Under the pieces are notes generated by a model. The model was not told the origin of the DNA, ran no database searches, and was given only the letters and a program-made list of their open reading frames with translations. Positions 5,872 through 24,173 of a stretch of 64,000 nucleotides of DNA are shown piece by piece. Each line of letters begins with the position of its first letter. Position 1 is the first letter of the stretch. Position numbers and translations under genes: made by a program. Source of the stretch: Pseudomonadota bacterium (GTDB taxonomy: Bacteria; Chloroflexota; UBA5177); NCBI GenBank assembly GCA_021324655.1, contig JAJPIP010000035.1, positions 86,121 through 150,120 on the forward strand. Direction: 5' to 3'.

Positions 5872-6948
5872 TCAGCTCACGACGGTAAAGGAGGTCTCCG
5901 TCTGAAGGGATGATCCATCCGGCAGGGTGGCCGCGACCTGAACGGACACCGTCGTGCCCGGCGGGATGGAGGACGGAACGAGGACCGTGCAGGACGCATG
6001 ACCGCTCGGGTCGGTTGATGTGGTGCAGACCGCCGGATGTCCCACGATGGCAAATGCCATCGTGATGGTCACTCCGCCCGCGTTCGGTCCGCTCAGAACC
6101 GCTGTGACCGTTTCCGTCGAGCCGGGCGTGACGGACGGCTCCTGTGGGGAGGCGGTGAGAGTGGGACCGGCGGCTGTCGCGGTTGCGGTCGGGGTCGGAA
6201 TCACCGTGGCCGGGATGGGCGTCGCGGTCGGGGCAGGGACAGTGGTCGCCGTCGGCAGGGGGCTGGTGGCAGTTGCCGTGGGCGACGGAAGGATGGTGGC
6301 GGTGGGAGTTGGTGCCGGCTGGTGGATTGCTCGGTGGAGACGCCGAGCAAGGTGGGCCAGCGCCGACGACTGCCGGTGGAAGTCGCGCATCAGGAGCGAG
6401 GAGACGCTGGCCGGTGCGGCACCGTCGTACTCGAGATAGGACTCAACGAGAACGTCGTGGTACGTGAAAAACAGGAAGACCAGCGTCTCCTGTGCCGCGC
6501 TCATCACATAGGCCCGCGCGTAGAGGTGGGTGACGCGCGTCCCGTGCGTGCGCAGTCGCACGTCATGCAGGGCGCGGCGCGCCGCGGCGTGCGATCGGAA
6601 GACGTGAATCCCGTAGGCAAAGACGGTGTGATGGATCTGGAGGTTCTCGCCCCGCCCCGTCGTGTACTGCCAGAGTCCGGCCTGGATCCAGCCGCTGCCG
6701 TCCACCCGGTGCAGTCGCTGGAAACTGGTGTGATGAACCGGACCAAAGTAGTGGTCCGCCTCCGCGTTGGTGGCGGGGAGCACGACGATGTGCGTGTGGT
6801 GCGGATAATCGGCTCTGGGAAGCGCCAGAGAGAGTGCGGCTGAAGATTGTTCCGGAATGGCTGCTCCGACCACGAGCAGGCAGGCAACCAGGGCAAAACG
6901 ACGAATAGGCTCTCCCTCCCCCGCCAGAATACGGCCTCGGCGAGTCAT
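5872..6948 (-). CDS. Secreted/membrane-anchored hypothetical protein with His-rich domain, Pro/Thr linker and Ig-like C-terminal domain
   Basis: Hydrophobic N-terminal signal/anchor (FALVACLLVVGAAIP), then a His-rich region. Central (PTATx)n low-complexity linker. Thr/Ser-rich beta-rich C-terminus. Confidence 0.5.
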   Translation of the reverse strand: MTRRGRILAGEGEPIRRFALVACLLVVGAAIPEQSSAALSLALPRADYPHHTHIVVLPATNAEADHYFGPVHHTSFQRLHRVDGSGWIQAGLWQYTTGRGENLQIHHTVFAYGIHVFRSHAAARRALHDVRLRTHGTRVTHLYARAYVMSAAQETLVFLFFTYHDVLVESYLEYDGAAPASVSSLLMRDFHRQSSALAHLARRLHRAIHQPAPTPTATILPSPTATATSPLPTATTVPAPTATPIPATVIPTPTATATAAGPTLTASPQEPSVTPGSTETVTAVLSGPNAGGVTITMAFAIVGHPAVCTTSTDPSGHASCTVLVPSSIPPGTTVSVQVAATLPDGSSLQTETSFTVVS

Positions 6949-9207: not shown

Positions 9208-10077
9208 TTATTGGGCAGCGCCAGCCGGTGCGCTCGTGAGGCGCTCGATGCGAGCGTGCTCGGCGAGGGCGGCCTCGAGAGCGGCGATCCCGGCCCGCGA
9301 CTCGGCCAGCCCGGGCATGGCGACCGTGAGACGCTGGAAGAGGAGTCCGGGCCAGAGCAACGGGCGCAACCGGTTCTGTCCCCACATCACCATTTCGAAG
9401 GCGATGCAGAGGGCCGGGAGCGGCACGGCGACCGTGATGACATAGCCGGCATAACCGGAGATCACCGAGCCCAGGACCATGCCGGGCACCATGAGGAGCA
9501 TGGCCAGCATGGCCAGATTGGTGCCGCAACGCGGATGATACAGCGTGCGTTTCCGTGTGTTCTCAACGGTGAGTGGCATGCCCGCCTCGTAGGCGGCGAT
9601 CGCCTGGTGCTCACCCCCGTGGAAGCGCCAGATGCGTCCGAACCGGGGCAGGGCGCGCGTCACGCCGATGAGACTGAAAAAGAGAAGAAGCTGCAGAATG
9701 GACGAGCCGGCCGCGTGCCAGACAGCGGGCAGCGTGGCAAACACGCCGTTGGCCAGCGTGGACAGGATGCCGATACAAATGATGGCTGCCAGCAGTGGCA
9801 GCGGGATCCGCTTGCCCCGGCTGGGCTTCCAGCCGCGCACCACGAGGCCCATCTGACTGACGAGCTTGGGAACGATCCGGATAAAGGGGAGCCGCTCCAC
9901 GGGGTGAGACTTGCGGGGCGGCAGCGGGAACGATTCGATGGTGAGAGTGCCGTCGGCAGATTCGCGGGCAATGGCAGCAGCCAGTGGCGTGAGCATCATC
10001 ACGCCATCCGGGAGCGCGGAGCCACCGACACGGATCGGGGTGGGGGATGCCTGTGTCATGATGCCGTAAGTTACCAT
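9208..10077 (-). CDS. DUF1385 (YqhQ-like) membrane-associated protein
   Basis: N-terminal IRVGGSALPDGVMMLT and central WRFHGGEHQAIAAYE fit the DUF1385 family. Start at the internal ATG (MVTYGIM), which has a GGGAG RBS. Confidence 0.65.
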   Translation of the reverse strand: MVTYGIMTQASPTPIRVGGSALPDGVMMLTPLAAAIARESADGTLTIESFPLPPRKSHPVERLPFIRIVPKLVSQMGLVVRGWKPSRGKRIPLPLLAAIICIGILSTLANGVFATLPAVWHAAGSSILQLLLFFSLIGVTRALPRFGRIWRFHGGEHQAIAAYEAGMPLTVENTRKRTLYHPRCGTNLAMLAMLLMVPGMVLGSVISGYAGYVITVAVPLPALCIAFEMVMWGQNRLRPLLWPGLLFQRLTVAMPGLAESRAGIAALEAALAEHARIERLTSAPAGAAQ

Positions 10078-10195
10078 GCACCACTCCCTGTGTCCATGGT
10101 TCAAAAGGGGAAGAAATGGGGACCGATCAACGCGCGCCCGGTAGCCGTTTCCCTGTTCATTGGTAGATGATAGGGGCACACAGGAAGGGGCGAGG

Positions 10196-11113
10196 ATGAC
10201 CGACACACTGCCTGATGTGGCGATCCCTCATCTCCGTGACTATATCGAGGAACAGCGCCGGGGGAAGGGTGAAGAGGACGCGCCGCCCTATGCTCACCCC
10301 GTCGATCAGTGGATCTTGCGTACCCTCAACAGCTTACCGGTGCGCACCGTCCTCGACCGCGCCATCGACGCCTACATCAGTACCCAGATGGGCACTGAGC
10401 TCGCCTCCGGCATCCCGATCGACGGCAAATCCTTTCCCGACCTCTACCAGGTGCTGACCAAGTGCACCGAGACGCTCAACATCCCCATTCCGCACGTCTA
10501 TGCCATGAACAGTCCTTACCTGTTCAACGCGTTCACTGCCGGCACCGACGAGTACGCCTTTATCGGCATCACGGCCGGCCTCACCGAGTTTTTCGACCCG
10601 GGCGAAGCATGCTTTGTCATCGGCCACGAGTGCGGGCATATCGCCGCGCGGCACATGAAATACCACACCCTGGTCATGATCCTGGCGGGGACCCTGCCGC
10701 GGTTCCTCGGGCCGCTGGGCGCGCTCCTGAGCCGGACCGCGGAGGTGCCCCTGATGGCCTGGGAGCGACGCTCCGAGATCACCGCCGACCGTGCCGGCCT
10801 CCTTTGCTGTGGCGATCTGAAAACGGCGGAGCGCGCCCTGGTCCGCCTGGTCGCGGGATTCGCCGATGTCGACCGCGTCGATATCGATGACTATCTCGAG
10901 CGCGCCAAGGATCTCGAGTCGTATCACGGCCTCTCCGGCTGGCAGCAGCTCTTTCAGACGCACCCGCTCATCCCCAAGCGCATCGAGGCGATCCGCCTCT
11001 TTGCCCGCTCTGAGCTGTACTACGAGATCACGGGCCAGCCGCGTCCCACCGGGCTGGAACTCCTGACGCGCCCGGAGCTCGACAGGCGCATCAACGACAT
11101 TGTGAAGCCGTGA
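10196..11113 (+). CDS. M48-family zinc metallopeptidase (HtpX/Ste24-like, soluble form)
   Basis: HExxH motif (VIGHECGHIAARH) with the downstream glutamate ligand (EITADRAG). No obvious TM helices. RBS GAAGGGG before the ATG at 10196. The stop overlaps the GTG start of the next gene (GTGA). Confidence 0.75.
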   Translation: MTDTLPDVAIPHLRDYIEEQRRGKGEEDAPPYAHPVDQWILRTLNSLPVRTVLDRAIDAYISTQMGTELASGIPIDGKSFPDLYQVLTKCTETLNIPIPHVYAMNSPYLFNAFTAGTDEYAFIGITAGLTEFFDPGEACFVIGHECGHIAARHMKYHTLVMILAGTLPRFLGPLGALLSRTAEVPLMAWERRSEITADRAGLLCCGDLKTAERALVRLVAGFADVDRVDIDDYLERAKDLESYHGLSGWQQLFQTHPLIPKRIEAIRLFARSELYYEITGQPRPTGLELLTRPELDRRINDIVKP

Positions 11114-12837
11114 CGGACCAACCGCTCCCGGACATCGTCGAGCAGATCGCGGCGGTTGCAGCCGATCTGGACGACGAGCGGCTCGCCGGGTCGCTGGCCG
11201 TGCTGTCCGAGCAGCGGGCACGAGCCCAGGTGCAGATCCTCATCGCGGGGACGGCCGGGTCGGGACGCGCCGCCCTCGTCAACAGCCTGCTGGGCACCGA
11301 TCTCCTCCCCTCCTCGCCTATTCCCAAGGCGCCGGTTGGCCTGCAACTGCGCTACCACCCGGCGCTCACGGTCCAGCTGGTGGCTGCCGATGGCCGCCGG
11401 GCCATCCCGACAGCGGAGCTGCGAACCGCACTCGTCGATCCGCGCCTCCCTCAGCGCTACCAGTACGTCGAAATCGGCATGCCCGCCGAGATTCTTACCA
11501 TGGTCGACGTGCGGATCGAAGATCTACAGTCGTCCTATGCGCCCGAGGACTGGTCACATCTCGTGGCACGCAGCGACTTCGTCATCGTCGTCCTCAACGC
11601 CGGCGCCCTGCTCTCCCAGACGGAGCGTGACTTCTTGCGGGATCAGCTGGGGCCACGCGGGCTCCATCGTGCCGCCCTCGTCATCAATCAGATCGATCAA
11701 GTGCCGGAGGACGAGCGGGAGAGCATTCGTGCCGCGGTCCGCGCTTTCCTCGGACCCTTTGAGAGCCGGCCCGTCAGCATCGAAGCCGTCGCTCCCCAGC
11801 TTGCAACGGATACTCGTCACCCCCTGCGGATCCTCTTTGCCGACCTCGCCGCGAGCTCGCTCCGGCTGCGTGAGTCGGCCGTCCGAGACGCTGCAGCCGC
11901 CGCTCTGGACGAGATCGAGGCAGTCGCTGCCGGCTCGCTGGCTCTGGCGTCATTGGAGGTGGAGCAGGTGGAGCGGGCGCGCGCGGCCCTGGCGGAGCGA
12001 CAGGAATGGCTGCGAGGGCGGATCGAACGGGTGCAGCGGCGCGTTGACGCTCTCATCGGCACGGTTGTGCGGGAGCAGATGCACGAGGCGATTCGTGGGA
12101 GCGGTGAGGTCATCCGCCGTCTGCTACCGGAGGAAATCGCCGCCGTGGACGATCTGCAAGACGTGCGTCGCTATCTCCCCGGCTACCTCCAGAGTCTGTG
12201 GGAAGAGATCCTGGAGCGGCGCATGACGGCGATCAGGGCCTCCCTCGAGGACGAGGCGGGGCGCATCGAAGAGCTGATCGAAAGCGATCTGCGGGAGCTG
12301 GTGGAGGCCGTGGAGGGATCGCTTGGCGCGACCGCCGGCGCGTTCGGCGGACAGAACACCGCCCGCGTCTTCGTTATGCCCCGCCGCAGTCAAAGCCACG
12401 CGGAGAGTGTCGCGCGCGGCCTCAGCCTGCACGGCTTCGTCTGGCTCATCATTGCCACTTTTTTCCCCGTCAGCTTCATTCCCGGCCTCCTCACCCTCGG
12501 CGGCAGCCACCTCATCCGCCACTTCTATGCGCGAGACATCGAGGACGCCAACCGCAAGGCCCTCACCGAGGCCGCCCTGGCGGCGACACGCGACCTGGAG
12601 CGTGACATCCACACCGAGGTCGACCGGCAGTTCGGGGATCTCGCGGCCGACATGCACCGCGCCGTGGCGGACCGATATCAGGACGCGGTGCGTCGCCTGG
12701 AAGCGATGCTCGGTCAGGGGACGGCGGACCGCGCAGCGATGGAAGAGCGGCGGGAGAGGCTGACCCGACTCGTTGCAGAGACCATCCCTGCTCTGCGGCA
12801 GGAGATGGAAAGAGGGGAAAAGGCCGGAGCGGTATGA
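11110..12837 (+). CDS. Bacterial dynamin-like protein with degenerate GTPase motifs (DLP-1)
   Basis: 575 aa. DLP architecture: GTPase-like N-domain, long helical stalk, hydrophobic paddle near aa 430-460 (FVWLIIATFFPVSFIPGLLTLGG). G1 is GTAGSGRA (K to R, S/T to A) and there is no DxxG G3 motif. G4-like NQID is present. GTG start overlaps the M48 stop. Confidence 0.7.
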   Translation: MTDQPLPDIVEQIAAVAADLDDERLAGSLAVLSEQRARAQVQILIAGTAGSGRAALVNSLLGTDLLPSSPIPKAPVGLQLRYHPALTVQLVAADGRRAIPTAELRTALVDPRLPQRYQYVEIGMPAEILTMVDVRIEDLQSSYAPEDWSHLVARSDFVIVVLNAGALLSQTERDFLRDQLGPRGLHRAALVINQIDQVPEDERESIRAAVRAFLGPFESRPVSIEAVAPQLATDTRHPLRILFADLAASSLRLRESAVRDAAAAALDEIEAVAAGSLALASLEVEQVERARAALAERQEWLRGRIERVQRRVDALIGTVVREQMHEAIRGSGEVIRRLLPEEIAAVDDLQDVRRYLPGYLQSLWEEILERRMTAIRASLEDEAGRIEELIESDLRELVEAVEGSLGATAGAFGGQNTARVFVMPRRSQSHAESVARGLSLHGFVWLIIATFFPVSFIPGLLTLGGSHLIRHFYARDIEDANRKALTEAALAATRDLERDIHTEVDRQFGDLAADMHRAVADRYQDAVRRLEAMLGQGTADRAAMEERRERLTRLVAETIPALRQEMERGEKAGAV

Positions 12838-14873
12838 CGGAGGGATATGCCGGCGTCCGGCGCCGGACAGAAGAGATCGAGCGGATCCTGGAAAGCATGG
12901 CCGGCTTGATCGGGTCCGGCGAGGGCACTGCCCTCGGGACGCTAGGCCTGGCGGGGGACGCGGCGCACCTGCGTGCACGCGCCCGAGATCTGGAGCGCGG
13001 GCTCTTCACCATTGTCGTCGTCGGGGAGTTCAAAAGCGGGAAGAGCACGCTGCTAAACAGCATGCTGGGCAAGGGGACGCTGCCGGCGAAGGCGACCCCC
13101 TGCACCGCCATCATCACGGTGCTTGTCCACGGCACGAACGACCGCGTCGCCGTGTACGAGGTCGACCGGGAGGAGCCACGCTTTCTCGACTGGGAACAGT
13201 TCGTTCGCGAGTTCCAGCTCTCGCTGCAGGATCAGGAGACGCTGCAGGAAGGGCGGGCCCTTGACCGCTTCGCACGTGTCCAGTACGCCGAGATCGAAAG
13301 CACGCATCGCCTCTGCGACGATGGCGTGCGGCTGGTCGATTCGCCCGGCCTCGGCGAGCATCTCAGCCGCACGCGCGTGACGACCGGCTATCTCCGCCAG
13401 GCCCAGGCGGTGATCGTCGTCCTCAACGCCACCCGGATCCTGGGGCAGGCGGAGCGCGAATTCATCGAGAACGAGCTGGGACGAGGACGGCTCGAGAACG
13501 TCTTCTTCGTCGTCAACCGGATGGATCAGATCAATCTCGCCGACGCCGCCGGCATTCGGCACTGGGTCGAATCCAACCTGGCGTCGCATTTCATGGACGA
13601 TGACGGCCGGTTCGATCGTGACCTGTACGAGCGGCGGGTCTTTTTTGTCTCCGCCCGTCAGGCTCTGACGGCGCGGACCGATGCGGTCGATCAAGACCTG
13701 CTGGCGGCATCCGGCGTACCGGCCCTCGAAGAGGCACTCGAACGTTTTCTCACGAGCGGCGACAGGGCGACGGCGATGCTCCGCTCGGCCGTCGCGGTCG
13801 TCGAGCCGGTTCTGGCCCGGGCGGAGCATCATATTGAGCAGCGCAGGGCGGCCCTCGACCGCCCGATTGCAGAACTCGAGCAACGGCGGGGGGAGGCGGA
13901 GAGCCGGCTGGAAGGGCTGCAGCGACGCAAGACGGAGATCGAGCGCACCGTCTTCCTCTTCGGTGAGGTCGTGCAGCGCAAGATCTACAGTGACCTCCGT
14001 GCCTTCATCGAGGGAATGCGCGAGGCCTGGGACGAGGATTCGCGCCGGCTCATGGATCTGGACGACGCCGTCTCTTTCAAGAACTTGCTGGCCTCCTATA
14101 CACAAGCCGGGGCGAAGGAGCGGATGGCAGCGGCGATCGGCGAGCAAGTCCAGCACTACCTTCAGGCGAAGTTCGGGTGGTGGGTCGAGCGGGTGCCGGC
14201 GGTGGTAGAGGGCGACCTGCGCCTGATGATGGCGGAGGTCGAGGCACAGATCGAAGAGTTCGAATTGGCACTCGACGAGATAGCGGCGGCCTTCTCCGGG
14301 GCCGCGCCGCGCCGGCGCACGCCCACCGATCCCTCTGCCAATCTGGCCGACCTCGCCCTCACCATGCAAGATATCCACGGCATCACCGAGGGCATGCTGT
14401 TCCCCTCTGACTGGGCCGACGTGATCGGCACCATGGCCCAGCAGGCAATCGCTGTCTTCCTGGTCGGCACCTTCCTCACCGGCGGCAATTTCCTGATCGC
14501 GATTCTCGCTGTCGAGGCGTTCCATTTCGGCATGCACGAGCACGAGGCCAAGAAAAAGGTGCGCCAGGAACTGGGCGAGCGGCTGCAGCAGGGACTGCGC
14601 GATCAGGTCGAGGAGAAGCGTCCCTTTATTGAGGAGTTGATCGGACAGCGCTTCCGTGCTCTGGCCCTGGCGGTGACCGAAGCGATACAGCGCCAGATCG
14701 AGGAGGTCCGCGCCGAGCAAGAGCGCATCCTCCGGCAGAAACGTGATGAAAACTTCTCAGTCGGCGTGGAGCACAAGCGTCTCTGCACCATCGAGGACCG
14801 ACTGCACACGCTGAACGACGAGCTGTGCACCGCCGTCCAGGCGCCGCCGTCAGAGCATCGAGCCAGGTGGTGA
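12834..14873 (+). CDS. Bacterial dynamin-like GTPase (DLP-2, canonical motifs)
   Basis: 679 aa. G1 GEFKSGKST, G3 DSPGLGE, G4 VVNRMDQ. Helical stalk and paddle hairpin (AIAVFLVGTFLTGGNFLIAILAVEAF). ATGA overlap with DLP-1. Confidence 0.85.
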   Translation: MTEGYAGVRRRTEEIERILESMAGLIGSGEGTALGTLGLAGDAAHLRARARDLERGLFTIVVVGEFKSGKSTLLNSMLGKGTLPAKATPCTAIITVLVHGTNDRVAVYEVDREEPRFLDWEQFVREFQLSLQDQETLQEGRALDRFARVQYAEIESTHRLCDDGVRLVDSPGLGEHLSRTRVTTGYLRQAQAVIVVLNATRILGQAEREFIENELGRGRLENVFFVVNRMDQINLADAAGIRHWVESNLASHFMDDDGRFDRDLYERRVFFVSARQALTARTDAVDQDLLAASGVPALEEALERFLTSGDRATAMLRSAVAVVEPVLARAEHHIEQRRAALDRPIAELEQRRGEAESRLEGLQRRKTEIERTVFLFGEVVQRKIYSDLRAFIEGMREAWDEDSRRLMDLDDAVSFKNLLASYTQAGAKERMAAAIGEQVQHYLQAKFGWWVERVPAVVEGDLRLMMAEVEAQIEEFELALDEIAAAFSGAAPRRRTPTDPSANLADLALTMQDIHGITEGMLFPSDWADVIGTMAQQAIAVFLVGTFLTGGNFLIAILAVEAFHFGMHEHEAKKKVRQELGERLQQGLRDQVEEKRPFIEELIGQRFRALALAVTEAIQRQIEEVRAEQERILRQKRDENFSVGVEHKRLCTIEDRLHTLNDELCTAVQAPPSEHRARW

Positions 14874-14976
14874 CGGTGAACAAACGGCGCTCGGACACGG
14901 GGAAATATCCTGTCCTTCCGGAGTCCGCCACAGGCGGCTGGTCCGAGGCAAGCGCGATGGGTTGCAGCGTGCGTGC

Positions 14977-16422
14977 TCACGCATGCTCGACCTCGCGCAT
15001 CACGTCGTCTACGCGGCGCGTCAAATCGTCAGTCCACTCCTCGATCGCGCTCATGTCATGCATCCTTTGCCGAAGTTCATCGAGACGTGGCTGCCGGCGT
15101 GTCCAGCCGGCATAGTAGGCGTCGGCCTCCTGCAGGAGCGCATCCAACCGGTCAAAGTACTGCGCTGTCTCGAGATGCAGAGCATCCAGTAGGCGGCGTC
15201 CGGTGGCCTCCACGCGCCGCAGGAGGTCGGCTTCCACGTCCGTCTGGAAGACGTTGCGGGCGACCCAGCGGCCGAGCGTCGCGCCTCCCTCCGCCACTCG
15301 CTCATCCCCGAGAGCCTGCCCCACCATCTGACCGAGGGTCGAGCCGGTGTGGGCCGCCGGATGGGTGACGGCAATCTGGTCCGGGCGAATGATCCAGGTG
15401 GTGAGGTCGAAGGGAGGCAAAGTCACCGGCAGATCGGCCGCCATGTCGCGGACATCGTCGCTGACGGCCGCGCCGTATCGTTTGACCAGAACACCCCACG
15501 GAACCGCACCTCCTCCGGCGCGCAGTATCCGGTGCGCCTCCTCACGCGCGCTCGCCAGGAACGCATCGTCATGCGTCCGGAGGTCTGACGCCGGCCCACG
15601 TAGCCGCGTTCGTCCCGTTGCCAGTTGGGAACGCATCTGTGCGCGGTACTCCTCGATCCGTCCCGCCTCCTCCGCTTCCGCCTGAGCCACCTGGCGCCGC
15701 TCCTGCGTGATCTCACCTGCCAGCGCTTGCCGGGAGAGGGAGAGAGCGGAGTGGAGGCAGGCGAGCCGTGACAGAAGGGGGAGGCGATCGCTGCCGAGGA
15801 GTCCAAGCAGCCACGGCACGAACCAGCCCAGGTCCCCGTGGTCGGGCGCCGCCGACACGGCGAAAAGCCGGGGGCGCCCCACCAGCTCATTCCCCATCCC
15901 CTCCAGCGCCGCTCGCGCCCAGGTGAGGACCTCGTCGCGTTCACCCTCATCAATCATGTCTATCCGGTTGACCACGAAGATGAGATTGCCCCGCAGCATC
16001 TCATTCACCTGCCGTGCCATCTCGCGCTCCGCTCCCGAGAGGATCTGATCGGCACTCAACACCATGACCGCCAGGTCGGCACGGCCAATCTCCGCCAGGA
16101 CGCGTTCCGTGGCGGCCGGATCCTGAAAGAGCCCGGGCGTGTCGACGGCGATCCAGCCGGACCTTGGATCAAGCGGAACCGTCTCGACGGCAGGCGAAAA
16201 CCCCACGGCGCGCTCCGGCAGAACCGACGTGCCGATCAGCCGATTGATCAGAGATGACTTCCCGGTCTTGAAGTTTCCGAAGACCACCAGGCGCCGTTCG
16301 CGGCGATCAAGATTTTCCAGTTGATCGAGGACATCGCGCAGCGCCGCTCGATCCGCCATCCCGGCCGGCGGCTCCGGTTCGCGTAGGGCACGGGCACGAG
16401 ACCACATATCAGTGAGCGGCAT
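14977..16422 (-). CDS. Bacterial dynamin-like GTPase (DLP-3)
   Basis: G1 GNFKTGKSS, G3 VDTPGLF, G4 VVNRIDM. Start set at the internal ATG (MPLTDMW, 482 aa). Convergent with DLP-2. Confidence 0.8.
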   Translation of the reverse strand: MPLTDMWSRARALREPEPPAGMADRAALRDVLDQLENLDRRERRLVVFGNFKTGKSSLINRLIGTSVLPERAVGFSPAVETVPLDPRSGWIAVDTPGLFQDPAATERVLAEIGRADLAVMVLSADQILSGAEREMARQVNEMLRGNLIFVVNRIDMIDEGERDEVLTWARAALEGMGNELVGRPRLFAVSAAPDHGDLGWFVPWLLGLLGSDRLPLLSRLACLHSALSLSRQALAGEITQERRQVAQAEAEEAGRIEEYRAQMRSQLATGRTRLRGPASDLRTHDDAFLASAREEAHRILRAGGGAVPWGVLVKRYGAAVSDDVRDMAADLPVTLPPFDLTTWIIRPDQIAVTHPAAHTGSTLGQMVGQALGDERVAEGGATLGRWVARNVFQTDVEADLLRRVEATGRRLLDALHLETAQYFDRLDALLQEADAYYAGWTRRQPRLDELRQRMHDMSAIEEWTDDLTRRVDDVMREVEHA

Positions 16423-16507
16423 GAGAAGCGTCGACCGCTGTTTCCCCGAAAATATAGACTTCGGGGGTGCTGTCGAACATTCTTGACGGACGCTCCCGAT
16501 CCCAGCC

Positions 16508-17071
16508 GTGAGGCTCGTCCTTACCTGGCGATCGCCTCCCTCCGCATCATGCGCTAGGTGGAGTTCAACGCCCGAGACCTCCTCGGCGGAGGGACCGGCC
16601 AACGCCACGGTGGATCACTACGAGGCTGCCGTCGTCGGCCGGCCCGGAGACTCATCCTGGTACGCCTTCGATCGTGCCCGATATCGTCTCCTCCGGTACG
16701 ACATATTTCCGCGGCGGCTCATCCGGTATGCGCTCTGTCCTCCCGACACGCTGAGAGAGGGCGCGACGATCGTGCAAAGGATTGTGCTGGGACCGGTAAG
16801 TGTGGAGATGGCGGTCCGCGTCATCGACGTCTGGGATCGGGAGGAAGGGAACGTCCGTGAGGTAGGTTTCACGTATGCAACCCTTGTCGGTCATGCGGAG
16901 TGTGGCGTCGCGACCTTCAGGGTCCGGCGGGATCAAGATCAGGGTGTGAGGATCCTGATCGATGTGCGATCTCGGCCCGGCACTCGCCTGACCCATCTGG
17001 CACGCCCCGTGAGTCGGCTATTTCAGCGGGCTATCACACGTGCTGCGCTACGTCGCCTGGCTCGCTCCTGA
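16508..17071 (+). CDS. DUF1990-like protein
   Basis: GFTYATLVGHAECGVATFRV resembles the conserved DUF1990 core (GFAYGTLPGHPE-G-E). Start uncertain. Confidence 0.45.
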   Translation: MRLVLTWRSPPSASCARWSSTPETSSAEGPANATVDHYEAAVVGRPGDSSWYAFDRARYRLLRYDIFPRRLIRYALCPPDTLREGATIVQRIVLGPVSVEMAVRVIDVWDREEGNVREVGFTYATLVGHAECGVATFRVRRDQDQGVRILIDVRSRPGTRLTHLARPVSRLFQRAITRAALRRLARS

Positions 17072-20400: not shown

Positions 20401-21210
20401 TTACGCGTCCGGAGACCGCGCGCCGGCGCTCGGCACGTGGGCGAAGGCCAATGCGTCGCGACTCACGACCTCGTACATGCGTGCCAGATCGCCGTGGAAC
20501 TCCTCAGGCAGGTCGTGGAGGGGCAGCGGCCCGAGCCGTTTCAGAATAGCTTGTGGCACGCCGGGCGGAGAGATCTGAATGCCGATCTCGTCCAGATCGT
20601 CGCCGGCCTCCCAGAAGTCCCCGATATGCTCCTCCAGCGGCTCTGACGCGACCTTGGGAGCACGTGCCGACGGAGGACGCTCCGGCCGCTGACCGCGCAG
20701 CGCTGCCATCAGTTGTTCGCGGGTCTTGCCACGCAGCTGGAACAGGAGGAAGGGGTCGCGGTCGAACTCCGAGCCGAGCACGTAATAGACCGCGGCCACG
20801 TGCTTGCACGGGCTTGCCCAGTCGGGGCAGGTGCACGACATGATCAACTCTTCCCCTGACTTGGGGAAGAGCGACACATCGGCTGCCGAGAAGATTTCCT
20901 CAATATCGCGCGGCATCTCACCCGAGAGGAGGCGCGCGGCGTAGATCGCCTTGCGCCGCAAGAGACCGATGACCTTGCTCCAGTCGGACCGGGCGATCGG
21001 CTTCAGGCCGATCTCCACTCGGTACGGCTGCTTCCGCGATCCCTGCACCTTGGCTCGTACCAGACCGGGCTGGATATCAATATCGATAACATTCCCATGC
21101 CGGGCGTAGGAGCGGCCGCGATTGAGGCGAGCGCTCCATCCGAAGCGTTCCAGCACACGAATCCAGCGCTGCGCCCACCAGGACTGCGCGAATTCCGTCT
21201 TGCGGCTCAT
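20401..21210 (-). CDS. SWIM zinc-finger protein
   Basis: SWIM CxCx(n)CxH signature (SCTCPDWASPCKHVAAV). Start at the internal ATG (MSRKTEF), which makes an ATGA overlap with the stop of the upstream SNF2 gene. Confidence 0.75.
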   Translation of the reverse strand: MSRKTEFAQSWWAQRWIRVLERFGWSARLNRGRSYARHGNVIDIDIQPGLVRAKVQGSRKQPYRVEIGLKPIARSDWSKVIGLLRRKAIYAARLLSGEMPRDIEEIFSAADVSLFPKSGEELIMSCTCPDWASPCKHVAAVYYVLGSEFDRDPFLLFQLRGKTREQLMAALRGQRPERPPSARAPKVASEPLEEHIGDFWEAGDDLDEIGIQISPPGVPQAILKRLGPLPLHDLPEEFHGDLARMYEVVSRDALAFAHVPSAGARSPDA

Positions 21211-24173
21211 TCCAGCATCACCGCCTCTCGCCGTAGCTCGAACAGGTTCTTCAACTCGTCGGCGGAGAGCTCGGTCAGCCAGGACTCCCCGGAGCCGACG
21301 ATCTGATTCGCCAGTGCCTTCTTGCTCTCGATCATCTCGTCGATGCGCTCCTCGAGCGTTCCCGAGCAGAGCATCTTGTGGACCTGCACGTTCCGCGTCT
21401 GCCCGATGCGGAAGGCGCGGTCGGTGGCCTGATCCTCGACGGCGGGATTCCACCAGCGGTCGAAATGGAACACGTGGCTGGCGCGCGTCAGGTTGAGCCC
21501 GGTGCCGCCGGCCTTGAGCGACAGGATGAAGATCGGCGGCCCGCGCCGGTCGTTCTGGAAGCGGCTGACCAGTCGGTCACGAATGTGGCGCGGCGTGCCG
21601 CCATGCAGATAGAGGACATCCTTGCCCAGGCGCTCGCGGAGGTAGCTCTGTAGCTCGCGCCCGAACTCGGCGTACTGAGTGAAGATGAGGGCGCGGTCGT
21701 CGGCGGCGATCACCTCCTCCAGCATCTCCTCGAGACGGGCCAGCTTGCCGGAGCGCCCGGAGAGTGGACTGTGATCGCTCAGGAAGTGCGCGGGATGGTT
21801 GCAGACCTGCTTGAGCTTGGTGAGGCTGGCCAGGACCAGTCCCTTGCGCTGCATGCCTTCGGAGGACTCGATCTGTTGCATCATGTCCCGAACCACCGCC
21901 TCGTAGAGGGAGGCTTGCTCCGGAGTGAGTGAGCAGTAGACCTTCATCTCCAGCTTTTCGGGGAGATCGGAGATGATGGTCGGATCGCTCTTGACGCGCC
22001 GCAAGATGAACGGCTGGACCAGGGTGCGCAGCTGCGCCTTGGTGCCGGCATCGTTGCCGCGCTCAATGGGGAGCGCGAAGTTCTTGCGGAAGCGATCGGC
22101 CGAGCCGAGATAGCCCGGGTTCAGGAACTCCATGATGGACCACAGCTCGGAGAGACGATTCTCCACCGGCGTCCCGGTCAGGGCGACTCGAAAATCGGCC
22201 TTGAAAGCGCGCACCGCTTGCGCCTGCTTCGTGCTGGCATTCTTGACGTTTTGCGCCTCGTCCAGCACCACGCCGGCCCACGGCATCGATTCCAGTAATT
22301 CCCGGTCGCGCGCCGCCAAAGCGTAGGTGCTGATGACCAGATCGTGCTTTTTGGCCTCGGTCACGAACCCCTCCCCGGTCAGACGTCCCGGACCGTGGTG
22401 CGTCATGACGGAGAGGGAGGGGGCGAAGCGCCGCAACTCGTGCTCCCAGTTGCCCACGACCGACATGGGACAGATGAGCAGAGTCGGTCCGCTCAGGCCC
22501 TTCTGGTCTTTCAAGCTGAGGAGCATGCTGATCAACTCGACCGTCTTGCCCAGACCCATGTCGTCGGCCAGGCACGGATTGAGCCCGCGCTCGAGCAGGA
22601 AGTACATCCAGGAGACGCCGCGCTCCTGATAGGGGCGAAGCTCGCCGACAAAGCCGGCAGGTTTCTCCAGATCGGGAATGTGCCCGTCTTTCTCAAAGAG
22701 AGCGTTGAGCCAGCCCTCCGTCTCCACCGATTCGACAGGGAGATCGGAATCCAGTTCGCTGGTGCCGGCCGCCAGCGACAGCGCCTTGGCCAGCGGCAGC
22801 GTGTCGCCTCCGTTCTTCTCCCAGAAATCCTGGGCTTTCTTGACGTCCTCCGGATTCAGCTCGACCCATTCCCCGCGCACCCGGACCAGCGGCGCCTTCA
22901 GCGAGGCGAGCTTGGCGAACTCCTCGGGAGAGACGCCCTTGCCGCCCAGGGAGAGCTGCCAGTCGTAGTGGACGAGCGAATCGAGACCTAGAACGCTGCT
23001 GCCGTTGCCGTTGGCGTTGCCCGGTGCCAGGCGAATGCGCGCCGCCAGCCCCCGGCGGCGATTGAGCCACCAGTGCGGGACGATGACGCCCATGCCGCTC
23101 TCCTCCAGAATCGGCGCTGCTTCACGGAGGAAGGTATGCGCCTGGTGGACGGACAGGTGCGCGATTTCGGGATGGGCCGTCTTGAGCGACTTCTCCAGGG
23201 GCGGAAAGATACGCATCGCCGTCCCGAGATCGGACAGCAGTTTTTCCTGGGCGCGCCCCTGCTTGGCTTTGACCAGGTTCCAGCCGTTCCCGCGCTGCTT
23301 CCAGACCTGTCCGACAGGGACGAGGAGGCTGGGATCCTCCACCGATTGGAGGAAGAAACGCAGAATCCAGGGAGCCCGCGGATTGGAGGGAGATTCCAGG
23401 CGGAAAGTGGTCCGGAACGCCTCGTTAGCAACGACCTGCAAGGGCTCCAGCCACTTGCGAACGGCACCACGCAGCCGCTGATCGATCTTGATCGTGGTCG
23501 GCGTCTCCTCGTCGCGCGGCCGGGCGAGACTGAGGAGCCAGATGTAGGCCTGAGCGCGATTGCCCTGGCTGATGCGCGGCGGGACGCTCGGCTCCCAGCG
23601 CGCCAATGACTGGCGGCAGAGCGCGTCGATGGTGGTGCGGACAAAGGAGTCGAGGATGGTTGTCCCCGAGGGCGGCGAGCCGTGGGGCATGAGGGCACGG
23701 CAAACCGGAGGCATGGCGCGCGCCAGCCGCGCGAAGCGCTGACGATCATCGCCGGTCAGAACCGGCTGCCAGAGAGCGACGTTATGGTCGTTGATGGCAG
23801 GCACGTACCGCTCGCGCGCCAGCATTTCCAGCGTGAAGCGCGCCGTGATCTGCCAGAAGCGAAGGTCGTCGCCCATATTCTCGTCGGGCGAGAGCGTCAG
23901 CAGATGGAACATGGCGTCGACCGCCGGCAATTTGAGTCCGCTGACCTCGAAAGGTGTCAGGATGGCGTCTTCCGATGAATCGGACGACGAGAGCGGCCGG
24001 CCGTCGACGGCCGGCATGAGGAGAGAGACACTGGCCGCTTCTCCTTGCAGAAGCGGGAATCTCTCGCGCAGTTCGTCCGCATTCAGGATGCGTTCGTTGT
24101 CGTCGTCCAGCCGTTCGGCCCACAGGAAGAGTGAGCCTCCGTTCGGCTCAGGACGCCAGAGACCGTGGAGCAC
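21207..24173 (-). CDS. SNF2-family DEAD/H helicase (Swi2/Snf2 ATPase) with large N-terminal domain
   Basis: Helicase motif I DDMGLGKT, motif II DEAQNVKN, HELICc region (LKAGGTGLNLTRASHVFHFDRWWNPAVEDQATDRAFRIGQ). 988 aa. Confidence 0.85.
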   Translation of the reverse strand: MLHGLWRPEPNGGSLFLWAERLDDDNERILNADELRERFPLLQGEAASVSLLMPAVDGRPLSSSDSSEDAILTPFEVSGLKLPAVDAMFHLLTLSPDENMGDDLRFWQITARFTLEMLARERYVPAINDHNVALWQPVLTGDDRQRFARLARAMPPVCRALMPHGSPPSGTTILDSFVRTTIDALCRQSLARWEPSVPPRISQGNRAQAYIWLLSLARPRDEETPTTIKIDQRLRGAVRKWLEPLQVVANEAFRTTFRLESPSNPRAPWILRFFLQSVEDPSLLVPVGQVWKQRGNGWNLVKAKQGRAQEKLLSDLGTAMRIFPPLEKSLKTAHPEIAHLSVHQAHTFLREAAPILEESGMGVIVPHWWLNRRRGLAARIRLAPGNANGNGSSVLGLDSLVHYDWQLSLGGKGVSPEEFAKLASLKAPLVRVRGEWVELNPEDVKKAQDFWEKNGGDTLPLAKALSLAAGTSELDSDLPVESVETEGWLNALFEKDGHIPDLEKPAGFVGELRPYQERGVSWMYFLLERGLNPCLADDMGLGKTVELISMLLSLKDQKGLSGPTLLICPMSVVGNWEHELRRFAPSLSVMTHHGPGRLTGEGFVTEAKKHDLVISTYALAARDRELLESMPWAGVVLDEAQNVKNASTKQAQAVRAFKADFRVALTGTPVENRLSELWSIMEFLNPGYLGSADRFRKNFALPIERGNDAGTKAQLRTLVQPFILRRVKSDPTIISDLPEKLEMKVYCSLTPEQASLYEAVVRDMMQQIESSEGMQRKGLVLASLTKLKQVCNHPAHFLSDHSPLSGRSGKLARLEEMLEEVIAADDRALIFTQYAEFGRELQSYLRERLGKDVLYLHGGTPRHIRDRLVSRFQNDRRGPPIFILSLKAGGTGLNLTRASHVFHFDRWWNPAVEDQATDRAFRIGQTRNVQVHKMLCSGTLEERIDEMIESKKALANQIVGSGESWLTELSADELKNLFELRREAVMLE

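Follow-up and report, generated by a model that had tools for sequence, protein, structure and literature searches.

Does a metallopeptidase gene that overlaps a cluster of dynamin-like genes belong with them, and what might the two do together? The question is raised by a locus in a 64,000-nucleotide (nt) stretch of contig JAJPIP010000035.1 (GenBank assembly GCA_021324655.1), in which an M48 zinc metallopeptidase gene lies beside the genes of three dynamin-like proteins (DLPs), here called DLP1, DLP2, and DLP3. The full stretch is referred to as the window, and positions are counted from its first letter. An earlier note on this DNA, made from the letters alone, had presented these genes as a candidate membrane-remodelling or defence module. 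We found that the peptidase and DLP genes almost certainly form a conserved gene module, in which DLP1, judged by its motifs, is a maintained dynamin-fold pseudo-GTPase. Tandem bacterial DLPs are known; what is added here is an M48 peptidase dedicated to them, along with a subunit that is a pseudo-GTPase, and both additions are conserved.

Conservation of the M48-DLP linkage

Related loci were collected by alignment of the M48 protein alone in one genome per GTDB species, which gave 159 relatives, and the best 80 were kept. DLP genes were detected with phmmer and jackhmmer, using the window DLPs against all open reading frames (ORFs) of these 80 loci. A locus was counted as informative if it had at least 1.5 kb of downstream sequence, and a DLP gene was counted as adjacent if it lay on the same strand and started within 2.5 kb. 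By this measure, a same-strand DLP gene follows M48 in 72 of 73 informative loci, with L041 as the sole exception. M48-DLP loci occur in Chloroflexota, Cyanobacteria, Clostridia, Gastranaerophilaceae, Symbiobacteriaceae, and Myxococcota/Bradymonadales; Chloroflexota metagenome-assembled genomes are the source of the best homologues of the window proteins. The adjacency, which the earlier note had named beforehand as the point on which its proposal could fail, is thus conserved and not due to chance.

The order of the genes is constant, with M48 always first and a spacing between M48 and DLP1 of -4 to +45 nt in 25 related loci. The DLP complement, by comparison, forms a series: a single canonical DLP; two canonical DLPs; and a canonical DLP accompanied by a pseudo-GTPase and in some cases by a third DLP, which is the window type. 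Myxococcota/Bradymonadales and some Chloroflexia have M48 with a single canonical DLP, and two canonical DLPs follow M48 in three loci (L028, L042, and L043). The arrangement M48-DLP1-DLP2, usually with DLP3 next, is found in Chloroflexota, Cyanobacteria, Clostridia, Gastranaerophilaceae, and Symbiobacteriaceae. DLP3 shares the strand of DLP2 in most related loci, and its orthologues follow DLP2 in this way in Ktedonobacterales, Microcoleus, and Clostridia. Convergent orientation of the gene is confined to the window and the loci most closely related to it (L004, L009, and L014).

Independent gene calls, for which Pfam assignments were precomputed, give the same picture. In Ktedonobacterales, M48 is followed by proteins of 584, 707, and 555 amino acids (aa). 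In Microcoleus (L081), the series is M48, a 582-aa protein with no Pfam match, a 1142-aa double dynamin, and a 574-aa DLP. The 1142-aa protein, which occupies the DLP2 position (12695-16123 of L081), carries two Dynamin_N domains and is DynA-like; DLP3 and an unannotated 203-aa protein come after it.

In one case, the two kinds of protein are joined. P0191 (906 aa, a single ORF at 6001-8721 of L086) carries a Peptidase_M48 domain at residues 79-263 and then the Dynamin_N domain (residues 351-512) of a canonical dynamin-like protein, and the fusion junction is in frame (IKITGLF followed directly by MSLEQ). Across loci, the normalised similarity of M48 pairs tracks that of their DLP partners with a Spearman coefficient of 0.74, much of which shared phylogeny alone could explain. 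Because the flanking genes differ between lineages, the module stands out as the conserved unit. The possibility that an unrelated protease and a dynamin cluster came to lie side by side by chance has in its favor only the prior that neighboring genes can be unrelated; the adjacency in 72 of 73 informative loci across phyla, the overlapping junctions, and the P0191 fusion refute it, and we give it practically no weight.

DLP1 is a dynamin-fold protein with degenerate GTPase motifs

The earlier note had read inactivating changes in the G1 and G3 motifs of DLP1, and these changes are both present and shared by orthologues. In G1, Lys is replaced by Arg and Ser/Thr by Ala (GTAGSGRA); the G3-equivalent reads EDLQ; and G4 is NQID. 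DLP2 and DLP3 have canonical G1 (GxxxxGK[ST]), G3 (DxxG), and G4 ([NT][KR]xD) motifs, which DLP1 lacks, and E137 of DLP1 is invariant among its six closest homologues. Motif states were read from an alignment of all DLPs of the window and the 80 related loci. GxxG[SAN]GRx together with ExxD/G/E/N occupies the same columns in 16 orthologues from Chloroflexota, Cyanobacteria, and Symbiobacteriaceae, with ExxQ in the window DLP1. Because the same state recurs in these 16 orthologues, it is not a local accident, and by its motifs DLP1 qualifies as a maintained pseudo-GTPase. The DLP1 proteins of Clostridia have all G motifs eroded beyond recognition.

DLP1 evolves faster than its partners. Its identity to Chloroflexota relatives is 32-39%, against 41-55% for DLP2 and 54-62% for M48, the most conserved component of the module. 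What DLP1 orthologues keep is their length (547-588 aa), their position in the operon, and several residues of the helical domain, such as Y359, W364, and D393. An RYLPGY...W motif at residues 354-364 (12169..12201) is likewise retained across these fast-evolving orthologues, with Y359 and W364 each conserved in at least 90% of 32 sequences. The motif could be an interface with M48 or DLP2.

Placement of DLP1 in the dynamin superfamily is supported by structure. The Pfam match to Dynamin_N (PF00350) is borderline at 27.8 bits (cutoff, 27) and covers the first 45 model positions only, and sequence matches in the PDB are marginal. A word-indexed protein search found 6 DLP1 relatives, to which a 32-sequence profile added none. 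An AlphaFold2 (AF2) model built on a 6-sequence alignment (predicted local distance difference test score [pLDDT], 72; predicted template-modelling score [pTM], 0.45) places a GTPase alpha/beta domain at residues 41-226 and long helices at 238-344, 349-409, and 466-574. A Foldseek search with this model returned IniA at the top (1e-15), followed by the bacterial dynamin-like protein BDLP (2e-14) and the Campylobacter jejuni DLP pair (1e-12). In the model, the helical trunk ends in a low-confidence loop (residues 405-472), and the hydrophobic paddle segment of DLP1 lies inside this loop.

DLP2 and DLP3 are canonical dynamin-like GTPases

Unlike DLP1, DLP2 retains intact GTPase motifs: GEFKSGKS (residues 64-71), DSPG (169-172), and NRMD (228-231). 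Pfam assigns it Dynamin_N (9.4e-24, 84.8 bits) and the bacterial dynamin helical domain PF21808 (1.3e-20), so that a dynamin helical neck and trunk is recognized in DLP2 through PF21808 and in DLP1 through the long helices of the AF2 model. Nostoc punctiforme BDLP1 (2J68) is a full-length match for DLP2 (E 1.1e-47; DLP2 residues 29-655 align with 42-672), and weaker matches among PDB sequences are the DLP pair of C. jejuni, mitofusins, Fzo1, and IniA. Its description as a canonical dynamin-like GTPase therefore holds. A hydrophobic segment at residues 539-557 (Kyte-Doolittle mean, 2.06) corresponds to the paddle, and the proposal that both long proteins carry one is borne out.

DLP3 also has canonical motifs (GNFKTGKS, DTPG, and NRID), with Pfam matches to Dynamin_N (1.5e-10, 41.8 bits) and MMR_HSR1 (2e-9); hydropathy analysis found no hydrophobic paddle segment in it. 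Through Pfam, the PDB sequence search, and the fold search with the DLP1 model, all three proteins fall in the dynamin superfamily.

An M48 peptidase without membrane anchors

The first protein of the operon was identified in the earlier note as a soluble HExxH peptidase of the M48 type. The family assignment is firm: Pfam PF01435 matches at E 2.3e-25 (90 bits; cutoff, 20.3), and the catalytic residues H144-E145-x-x-H148 and E194 are intact and, together with D198, invariant in 22 homologues. The word soluble is apt insofar as hydropathy shows no N-terminal transmembrane helices, and is qualified by one moderately hydrophobic segment (residues 160-178) that remains after the HExxH motif. Judged by its sequence, M48 is thus catalytically intact but unanchored. 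An N-terminal region of about 80 residues lies outside the Pfam domain and contains a YAHPxDxWI motif, which is invariant in the 22 homologues.

The AF2 model of M48 (pLDDT, 81; pTM, 0.85) has as its leading fold matches M48 peptidases (3C37, ZMPSTE24, HtpX, BlaR1, and BepA), at weak E-values. Its nearest named relatives are the HtpX models, the best of which scores 59.9 bits against a cutoff of 369 (HtpX equivalog cutoffs, 245-422), and the HtpX fragment 3CQB. Identity with the HtpX equivalog was rejected, as the score lies about 6-fold below the cutoff and the N-terminal hydrophobic segment is missing. At E <= 1e-30, a profile search of 1.84 billion cluster representatives gave 228 proteins, a number that rose to 2657 when the limit was E <= 1e-10. 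There are also members of the M48 clade that have no DLPs and are joined instead to protein kinases, DnaJ, or zinc ribbons, or stand in different settings; two of the relatives, P0267 and P0184, are kinase-M48 fusions.

The kinship with HtpX raises the possibility that the genes are merely coregulated, with M48 an HtpX-like quality-control protease that shares a stress operon with membrane-repair dynamins and does not interact with them. The HtpX models and the 3CQB fragment as nearest named relatives would fit this explanation, HtpX and bacterial dynamins are both tied to membrane stress, and M48 can evidently do without DLPs, as in the clade members just described and in L041. Yet M48 lacks the transmembrane anchors of HtpX and misses its cutoffs about 6-fold; M48 is in first place throughout, and the junctions are tight and often overlap; the linkage is kept across several phyla while all other neighbors change; and P0191 is a fusion. 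We consider coregulation alone to be rather unlikely.

A proposed protease-dynamin assembly

With moderate confidence, we favor as the best explanation a membrane-remodelling dynamin assembly with a dedicated protease. From the gene content, motifs, folds, and linkage, and from the one fusion, we infer the following model of complex formation, protease targets, and physiological role. At the cytoplasmic face of the membrane, DLP1 and DLP2 would come together through their paddles in a heterotypic assembly; heterodimer formation has been proposed for tandem bacterial DLPs (PMC4159319; PMC5827413). GTP would be hydrolyzed by DLP2 and DLP3 only, with DLP1 acting as a scaffold or adaptor. Because M48 is catalytically intact yet has no membrane anchor, we propose that it is a dedicated partner which the DLPs recruit to the membrane. 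Once there, it might cleave the DLPs and so switch the assembly state, as OMA1 does with OPA1, or it might cleave membrane-protein substrates at sites marked by the DLPs, in the manner of HtpX. Its likely physiological task would be to survey, repair, or remodel the cytoplasmic membrane when the envelope is under stress.

Several considerations weigh against this explanation. Operon linkage is evidence of functional association and not proof that the DLPs are substrates of M48, and the contacts between M48 and the DLPs and between DLP1 and DLP2 are putative. The P0191 fusion comes from one metagenomic contig and could be a sequencing error, and the AF2 model of DLP1 is of moderate confidence. 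The parallel with OMA1 is an analogy and not a homology of the pair, because OPA1 has no close relative among the BDLPs and M48 scores best against HtpX (60 bits against 369). The patchy distribution across phyla also fits an accessory or defence role.

A more ambitious version of the model can be offered only tentatively. It would see in the module an ancient bacterial partnership of protease and dynamin, in which a cytoplasmic M48 peptidase is recruited by a heterotypic DLP assembly, built around a conserved pseudo-GTPase, and switches that assembly by proteolysis.

Genomic context and the question of defence

Could the module instead be an anti-phage system? In that case, an Eleos-like dynamin pair would act with a protease effector: the DLPs would sense membrane perturbation caused by phage, and M48 would in response break down proteins of the host or the phage, as happens in abortive infection or when lysis is delayed. 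Bacillus subtilis DynA reportedly confers phage resistance. Eleos, an antiphage system of the dynamin-like kind, comprises two genes (bioRxiv 10.1101/2022.12.12.520048), and the earlier note had likened DLP1 and DLP2 to its LeoA and LeoBC by their sizes. In PADLOC, whose matches are given here by E-value, DLP2 matches LeoA (1.4e-17) and LeoBC (3.8e-17) and DLP3 matches LeoA (7.3e-19), so an automated pipeline might call the pair Eleos. The match of DLP1 to LeoA is at 6e-4, which is not meaningful, and M48 has no PADLOC match. Against the NCBIfam model of the LeoA/HP0731 family (NF041922), the score is 34 bits, with the cutoff set at 325. PDB sequence searches with DLP2 and DLP3 (E <= 0.01) and with DLP1 (E <= 1) did not bring up LeoA (4AUR), which is a distant fold match of the DLP1 model, at rank 39. 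The resemblance to Eleos thus probably comes down to a coincidence of size and generic dynamin similarity. Likewise, the proposed match of DLP3 to IniC is one of size only, with no IniA match of DLP3 at E <= 0.01 and no iniB. Both the LeoA and the IniC labels were dropped as size coincidences.

The neighborhoods of the module lean against a defence-island system. No window gene within about 4 kb on either side matches a defence model. Among 96 flank ORFs of 24 related loci, the sole recurrent PADLOC match is generic Ser/Thr-kinase similarity, and Pfam finds housekeeping and regulatory genes there (GyrA, DnaA, Hsp70, DHDPS, SpoVT, and response regulators). In Myxococcota, the M48-DLP pair sits in a conserved syntenic neighborhood. 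The M48 family has no relative on the IMG/VR viral contigs scanned; its plasmid relatives are distant (30-35% identity), and the two inspected have no DLP linkage. A 706-aa neighbor of a plasmid M48 relative, tried as a candidate, has no dynamin domain. The distribution is patchy across distant phyla, with an M48 identity of 52-58% between Chloroflexota and Cyanobacteria; this is compatible with horizontal transfer and suggests transfer as a unit, as a defence system would have it. On balance, given the lack of meaningful PADLOC matches of M48 and DLP1, the LeoA/HP0731 score far under its cutoff, and the housekeeping flanks, we regard anti-phage defence as a live but rather unlikely rival.

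The carriers themselves point in a further direction. Most are filamentous, sporulating, or developmental bacteria (Ktedonobacterales, Chloroflexia, Microcoleus, Fischerella, Nostoc, Okeania, Myxococcota/Bradymonadales, and spore-forming Clostridia), some flanks hold a SpoVT-like gene or an FHA-domain protein, and DynA/DynB of Streptomyces act in sporulation septation. The module might accordingly be a developmental membrane-remodelling machine of multicellular or differentiating bacteria, serving division, sporulation, or the dynamics of septa or thylakoids. This apparent taxon bias, taken from the carriers found, may reflect large genomes; no division or sporulation gene is consistently linked, and a developmental role overlaps with the membrane-remodelling assembly that we favor. 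As a separate explanation, it appears improbable.

Comparison with known systems

Among the known systems closest to the module is the N. punctiforme pair BDLP1/BDLP2 (2J68, 2J69, and 2W6D). Besides the full-length match of DLP2, the two systems share the plan of GTPase domain, neck and trunk, and paddle, as well as a divergent DLP encoded next to the first, an arrangement known from the Tandem A/B classes (PMC5827413). They differ in that no protease partner is reported for BDLP1/BDLP2, whereas the module has a third DLP and, upstream, a pseudo-GTPase. In Nostoc foliaceum, the DLP2 that is linked to M48 matches BDLP1 at E 2.6e-44. Because it is as distant from BDLP1 as the window DLP2 is, the M48-linked DLP2s look like a separate branch and not like BDLP1 orthologues.

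The C. jejuni proteins DLP1/DLP2 (5OWV and 5OXF) are two different DLPs from one operon that form a single membrane-tethering assembly, and their chains are among the top sequence or fold matches of all three window DLPs. They differ in having no M48 gene and no third DLP, and we know of no inactive partner in that pair. B. subtilis DynA resembles the module in combining two dynamin units in one machine, and the Microcoleus version of the module has a double dynamin in the place of DLP2. However, DynA has no protease partner, and the NCBIfam DynA model scores DLP1 and DLP2 weakly, at 29-39 bits against a cutoff of 1600. Membrane repair and phage resistance, the roles reported for DynA, match the role proposed for the module.

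Eleos and LeoABC of enterotoxigenic Escherichia coli share adjacent dynamin-like genes with the module, and the PADLOC models of LeoA and LeoBC give the moderate matches of DLP2 and DLP3. GTP binding by LeoA was not seen in vitro (PMC4159319), which offers a conceptual parallel to an inactive partner. Unlike the module, Eleos has two genes and no protease, and no defence-island context was found here. The mycobacterial iniBAC genes encode tandem DLPs, of which the second (IniC) is shorter, and the fold search with the DLP1 model ranks IniA first. On the other side, DLP2 matches IniA over the GTPase domain only (2.8e-6), DLP3 has no IniA match in the PDB search at E <= 0.01, and the upstream gene is M48 and not iniB. 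No chain named IniC was among the PDB matches, so that the comparison is with IniA only.

On the protease side, OPA1 is cleaved by OMA1, an M48 metallopeptidase to which HtpX is distantly homologous in bacteria (PMC2806285). As is proposed for the module, an M48 peptidase is functionally paired with a membrane-remodelling GTPase of the dynamin superfamily; the differences are that OMA1 is membrane embedded, whereas M48 has no transmembrane helices, and that OPA1 is not of the BDLP/mitofusin type. With HtpX, M48 shares the HExxH...E core and the hydrophobic stretch after HExxH. It lacks the two N-terminal transmembrane helices of HtpX and has its own conserved N-terminal region of about 80 residues.

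A survey of cyanobacterial DLPs by genomic environment distinguished KGK, HSR1, chaperone, and tandem classes and mentions no protease (PMC5827413). Because DLP3 matches MMR_HSR1, the HSR1 class of that survey may be the arrangement of DLP2 with DLP3. In the full-text literature covered, which leaves most subscription journals outside, we found no paper that links M48 or HtpX peptidases with bacterial dynamins, and the earlier impression that a protease-coupled dynamin locus is not a described system stands within that coverage. The one bacterial paper in which HtpX and a dynamin both appear deals with the turnover of DgcE and has no bearing here.

Layout of the locus and neighboring genes

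The features of the locus are listed in Table 1. The earlier note had described four translationally coupled genes; the GTGA and ATGA overlaps are real, but they couple three genes at two junctions, since DLP3 is convergent. DLP3 itself was rightly described as a convergent, canonical GTPase, with a length of 481 aa and not 482. In the Joint Genome Institute (JGI) annotation of the same contig, it is 460 aa long, from a later ATG at 16359. DLP1 is 100% identical to a protein (P0121) on a JGI soil-type metagenome contig that is identical to the window. The G+C content of the window is about 66%.

Table 1 Features of the M48-DLP locus (positions in the window)
Feature	Position	Strand	Remarks
Divergent intergenic region, DUF1385 (-)/M48 (+)	10078..10195	.	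Holds GGAAGGGG, a ribosome-binding-like run
M48 zinc metallopeptidase	10196..11113	+	305 aa; first operon gene; ORF listing and Pfam PF01435
GTGA overlap, M48 stop/DLP1 start	11110..11113	+	Seen in sequence
DLP1, degenerate GTPase motifs	11110..12837	+	575 aa
DLP1 degenerate P-loop, residues 47-54	11248..11271	+	GTAGSGRA against GxxxxGK[ST]
DLP1 G3-equivalent, residues 137-140	11518..11529	+	EDLQ where DxxG is expected
DLP1 hydrophobic paddle segment, residues 443-461	12436..12492	+	Kyte-Doolittle 19-residue mean, 2.12
ATGA overlap, DLP1 stop/DLP2 start	12834..12837	+	Seen in sequence
DLP2, canonical BDLP1-type dynamin-like GTPase	12834..14873	+	679 aa
DLP3, canonical dynamin-like GTPase without paddle	14977..16422	-	481 aa; convergent

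The ribosome-binding-like run lies 5' of the M48 ATG at 10196, and the operon promoter is presumably in the same intergenic region, in which no match to the sigma-70 consensus was found. Between positions 9800 and 16800 there is a single sigma-70-like match, TCGACA-16-TATTTT at 16476..16449 on the minus strand, just upstream of the DLP3 ATG at 16422. Its place fits the 481-aa start, and its count is at chance level (1 found against 0.6 expected). The convergent gap between the end of DLP2 and DLP3 is 103 nt and shows no significant RNA structure (z = 0.27), and a terminator search of the scanned region gave nothing meaningful.

As for the flanks, DUF1385 (Pfam, 6e-28; divergent, upstream of M48) and DUF1990 (ORF at 16508..17071, plus strand, downstream; Pfam, 1.2e-27) were correctly named. 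The description of a TolB-like lipoprotein could not be verified: the 454-aa flanking protein has a lipoprotein-like N-terminus, with only a sub-threshold WD40-type match in Pfam (E 0.006) and none in NCBIfam. All three were considered as parts of the module and rejected, having no counterparts in any related locus. The JGI annotation omits the DUF1990 ORF and calls a 114-aa ORF on the opposite strand instead.

Further out, the N-terminus of a 358-aa protein (5872..6948, minus strand) is hydrophobic, and the protein contains a long linker rich in Pro, Thr, and Ala (PTPTATILPSPTATATSPLPTATT...); these features suggest that it is secreted or at the cell surface. About 5 kb downstream of the module lies a 988-aa SNF2-family helicase (21207..24173, minus strand; JGI Pfam DUF3670 and SNF2), with an ORF at 20401..21453 (minus strand) downstream of it. 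The PADLOC matches of this helicase to ZorD (3e-129) and DpdE (3e-123) probably reflect generic SNF2 similarity.

Some related loci have recurrent neighbors of their own. In Clostridia (L024 13540-14073 and 12 other loci), a conserved protein of about 170 aa is encoded between DLP2 and DLP3; it has a Gly/Ala-rich hydrophobic segment and no Pfam match. In Myxococcota (L061 3432-5210 and 14 other loci), a conserved protein with an FHA domain and a long coiled coil is encoded about 2.8 kb upstream of the M48-DLP pair. Two further proteins are conserved upstream, one of about 319 aa that is predicted to be a membrane protein and a small one of about 149 aa whose N-terminus is hydrophobic. Ser/Thr protein kinase genes stand on either side of the module in the Ktedonobacterales locus L083 (8455-9882 and 16636-17778), and kinases account for 4 of the 96 flank ORFs. 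Together with the kinase-M48 fusions, these neighbors may hint at control by phosphorylation.

Implications for bacterial dynamins

What bacterial dynamin-like proteins do in the cell, and how they are regulated, is poorly understood, even where structures have been solved. The module provides two handles on them: a protease partner, encoded first in the operon in at least four phyla and once fused to a dynamin, and a conserved dynamin subunit that is presumably catalytically dead. As a defence system, if it is one, the module would add a protease effector to dynamin defences of the Eleos type. If the protease acts on the dynamins, then mitochondria would not have invented the gating of dynamin remodelling by a protease. 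A protease-dynamin switch of this kind, if true, would be a prokaryotic counterpart of the control of OPA1 by OMA1 and the first regulatory partner to be identified for bacterial dynamins.

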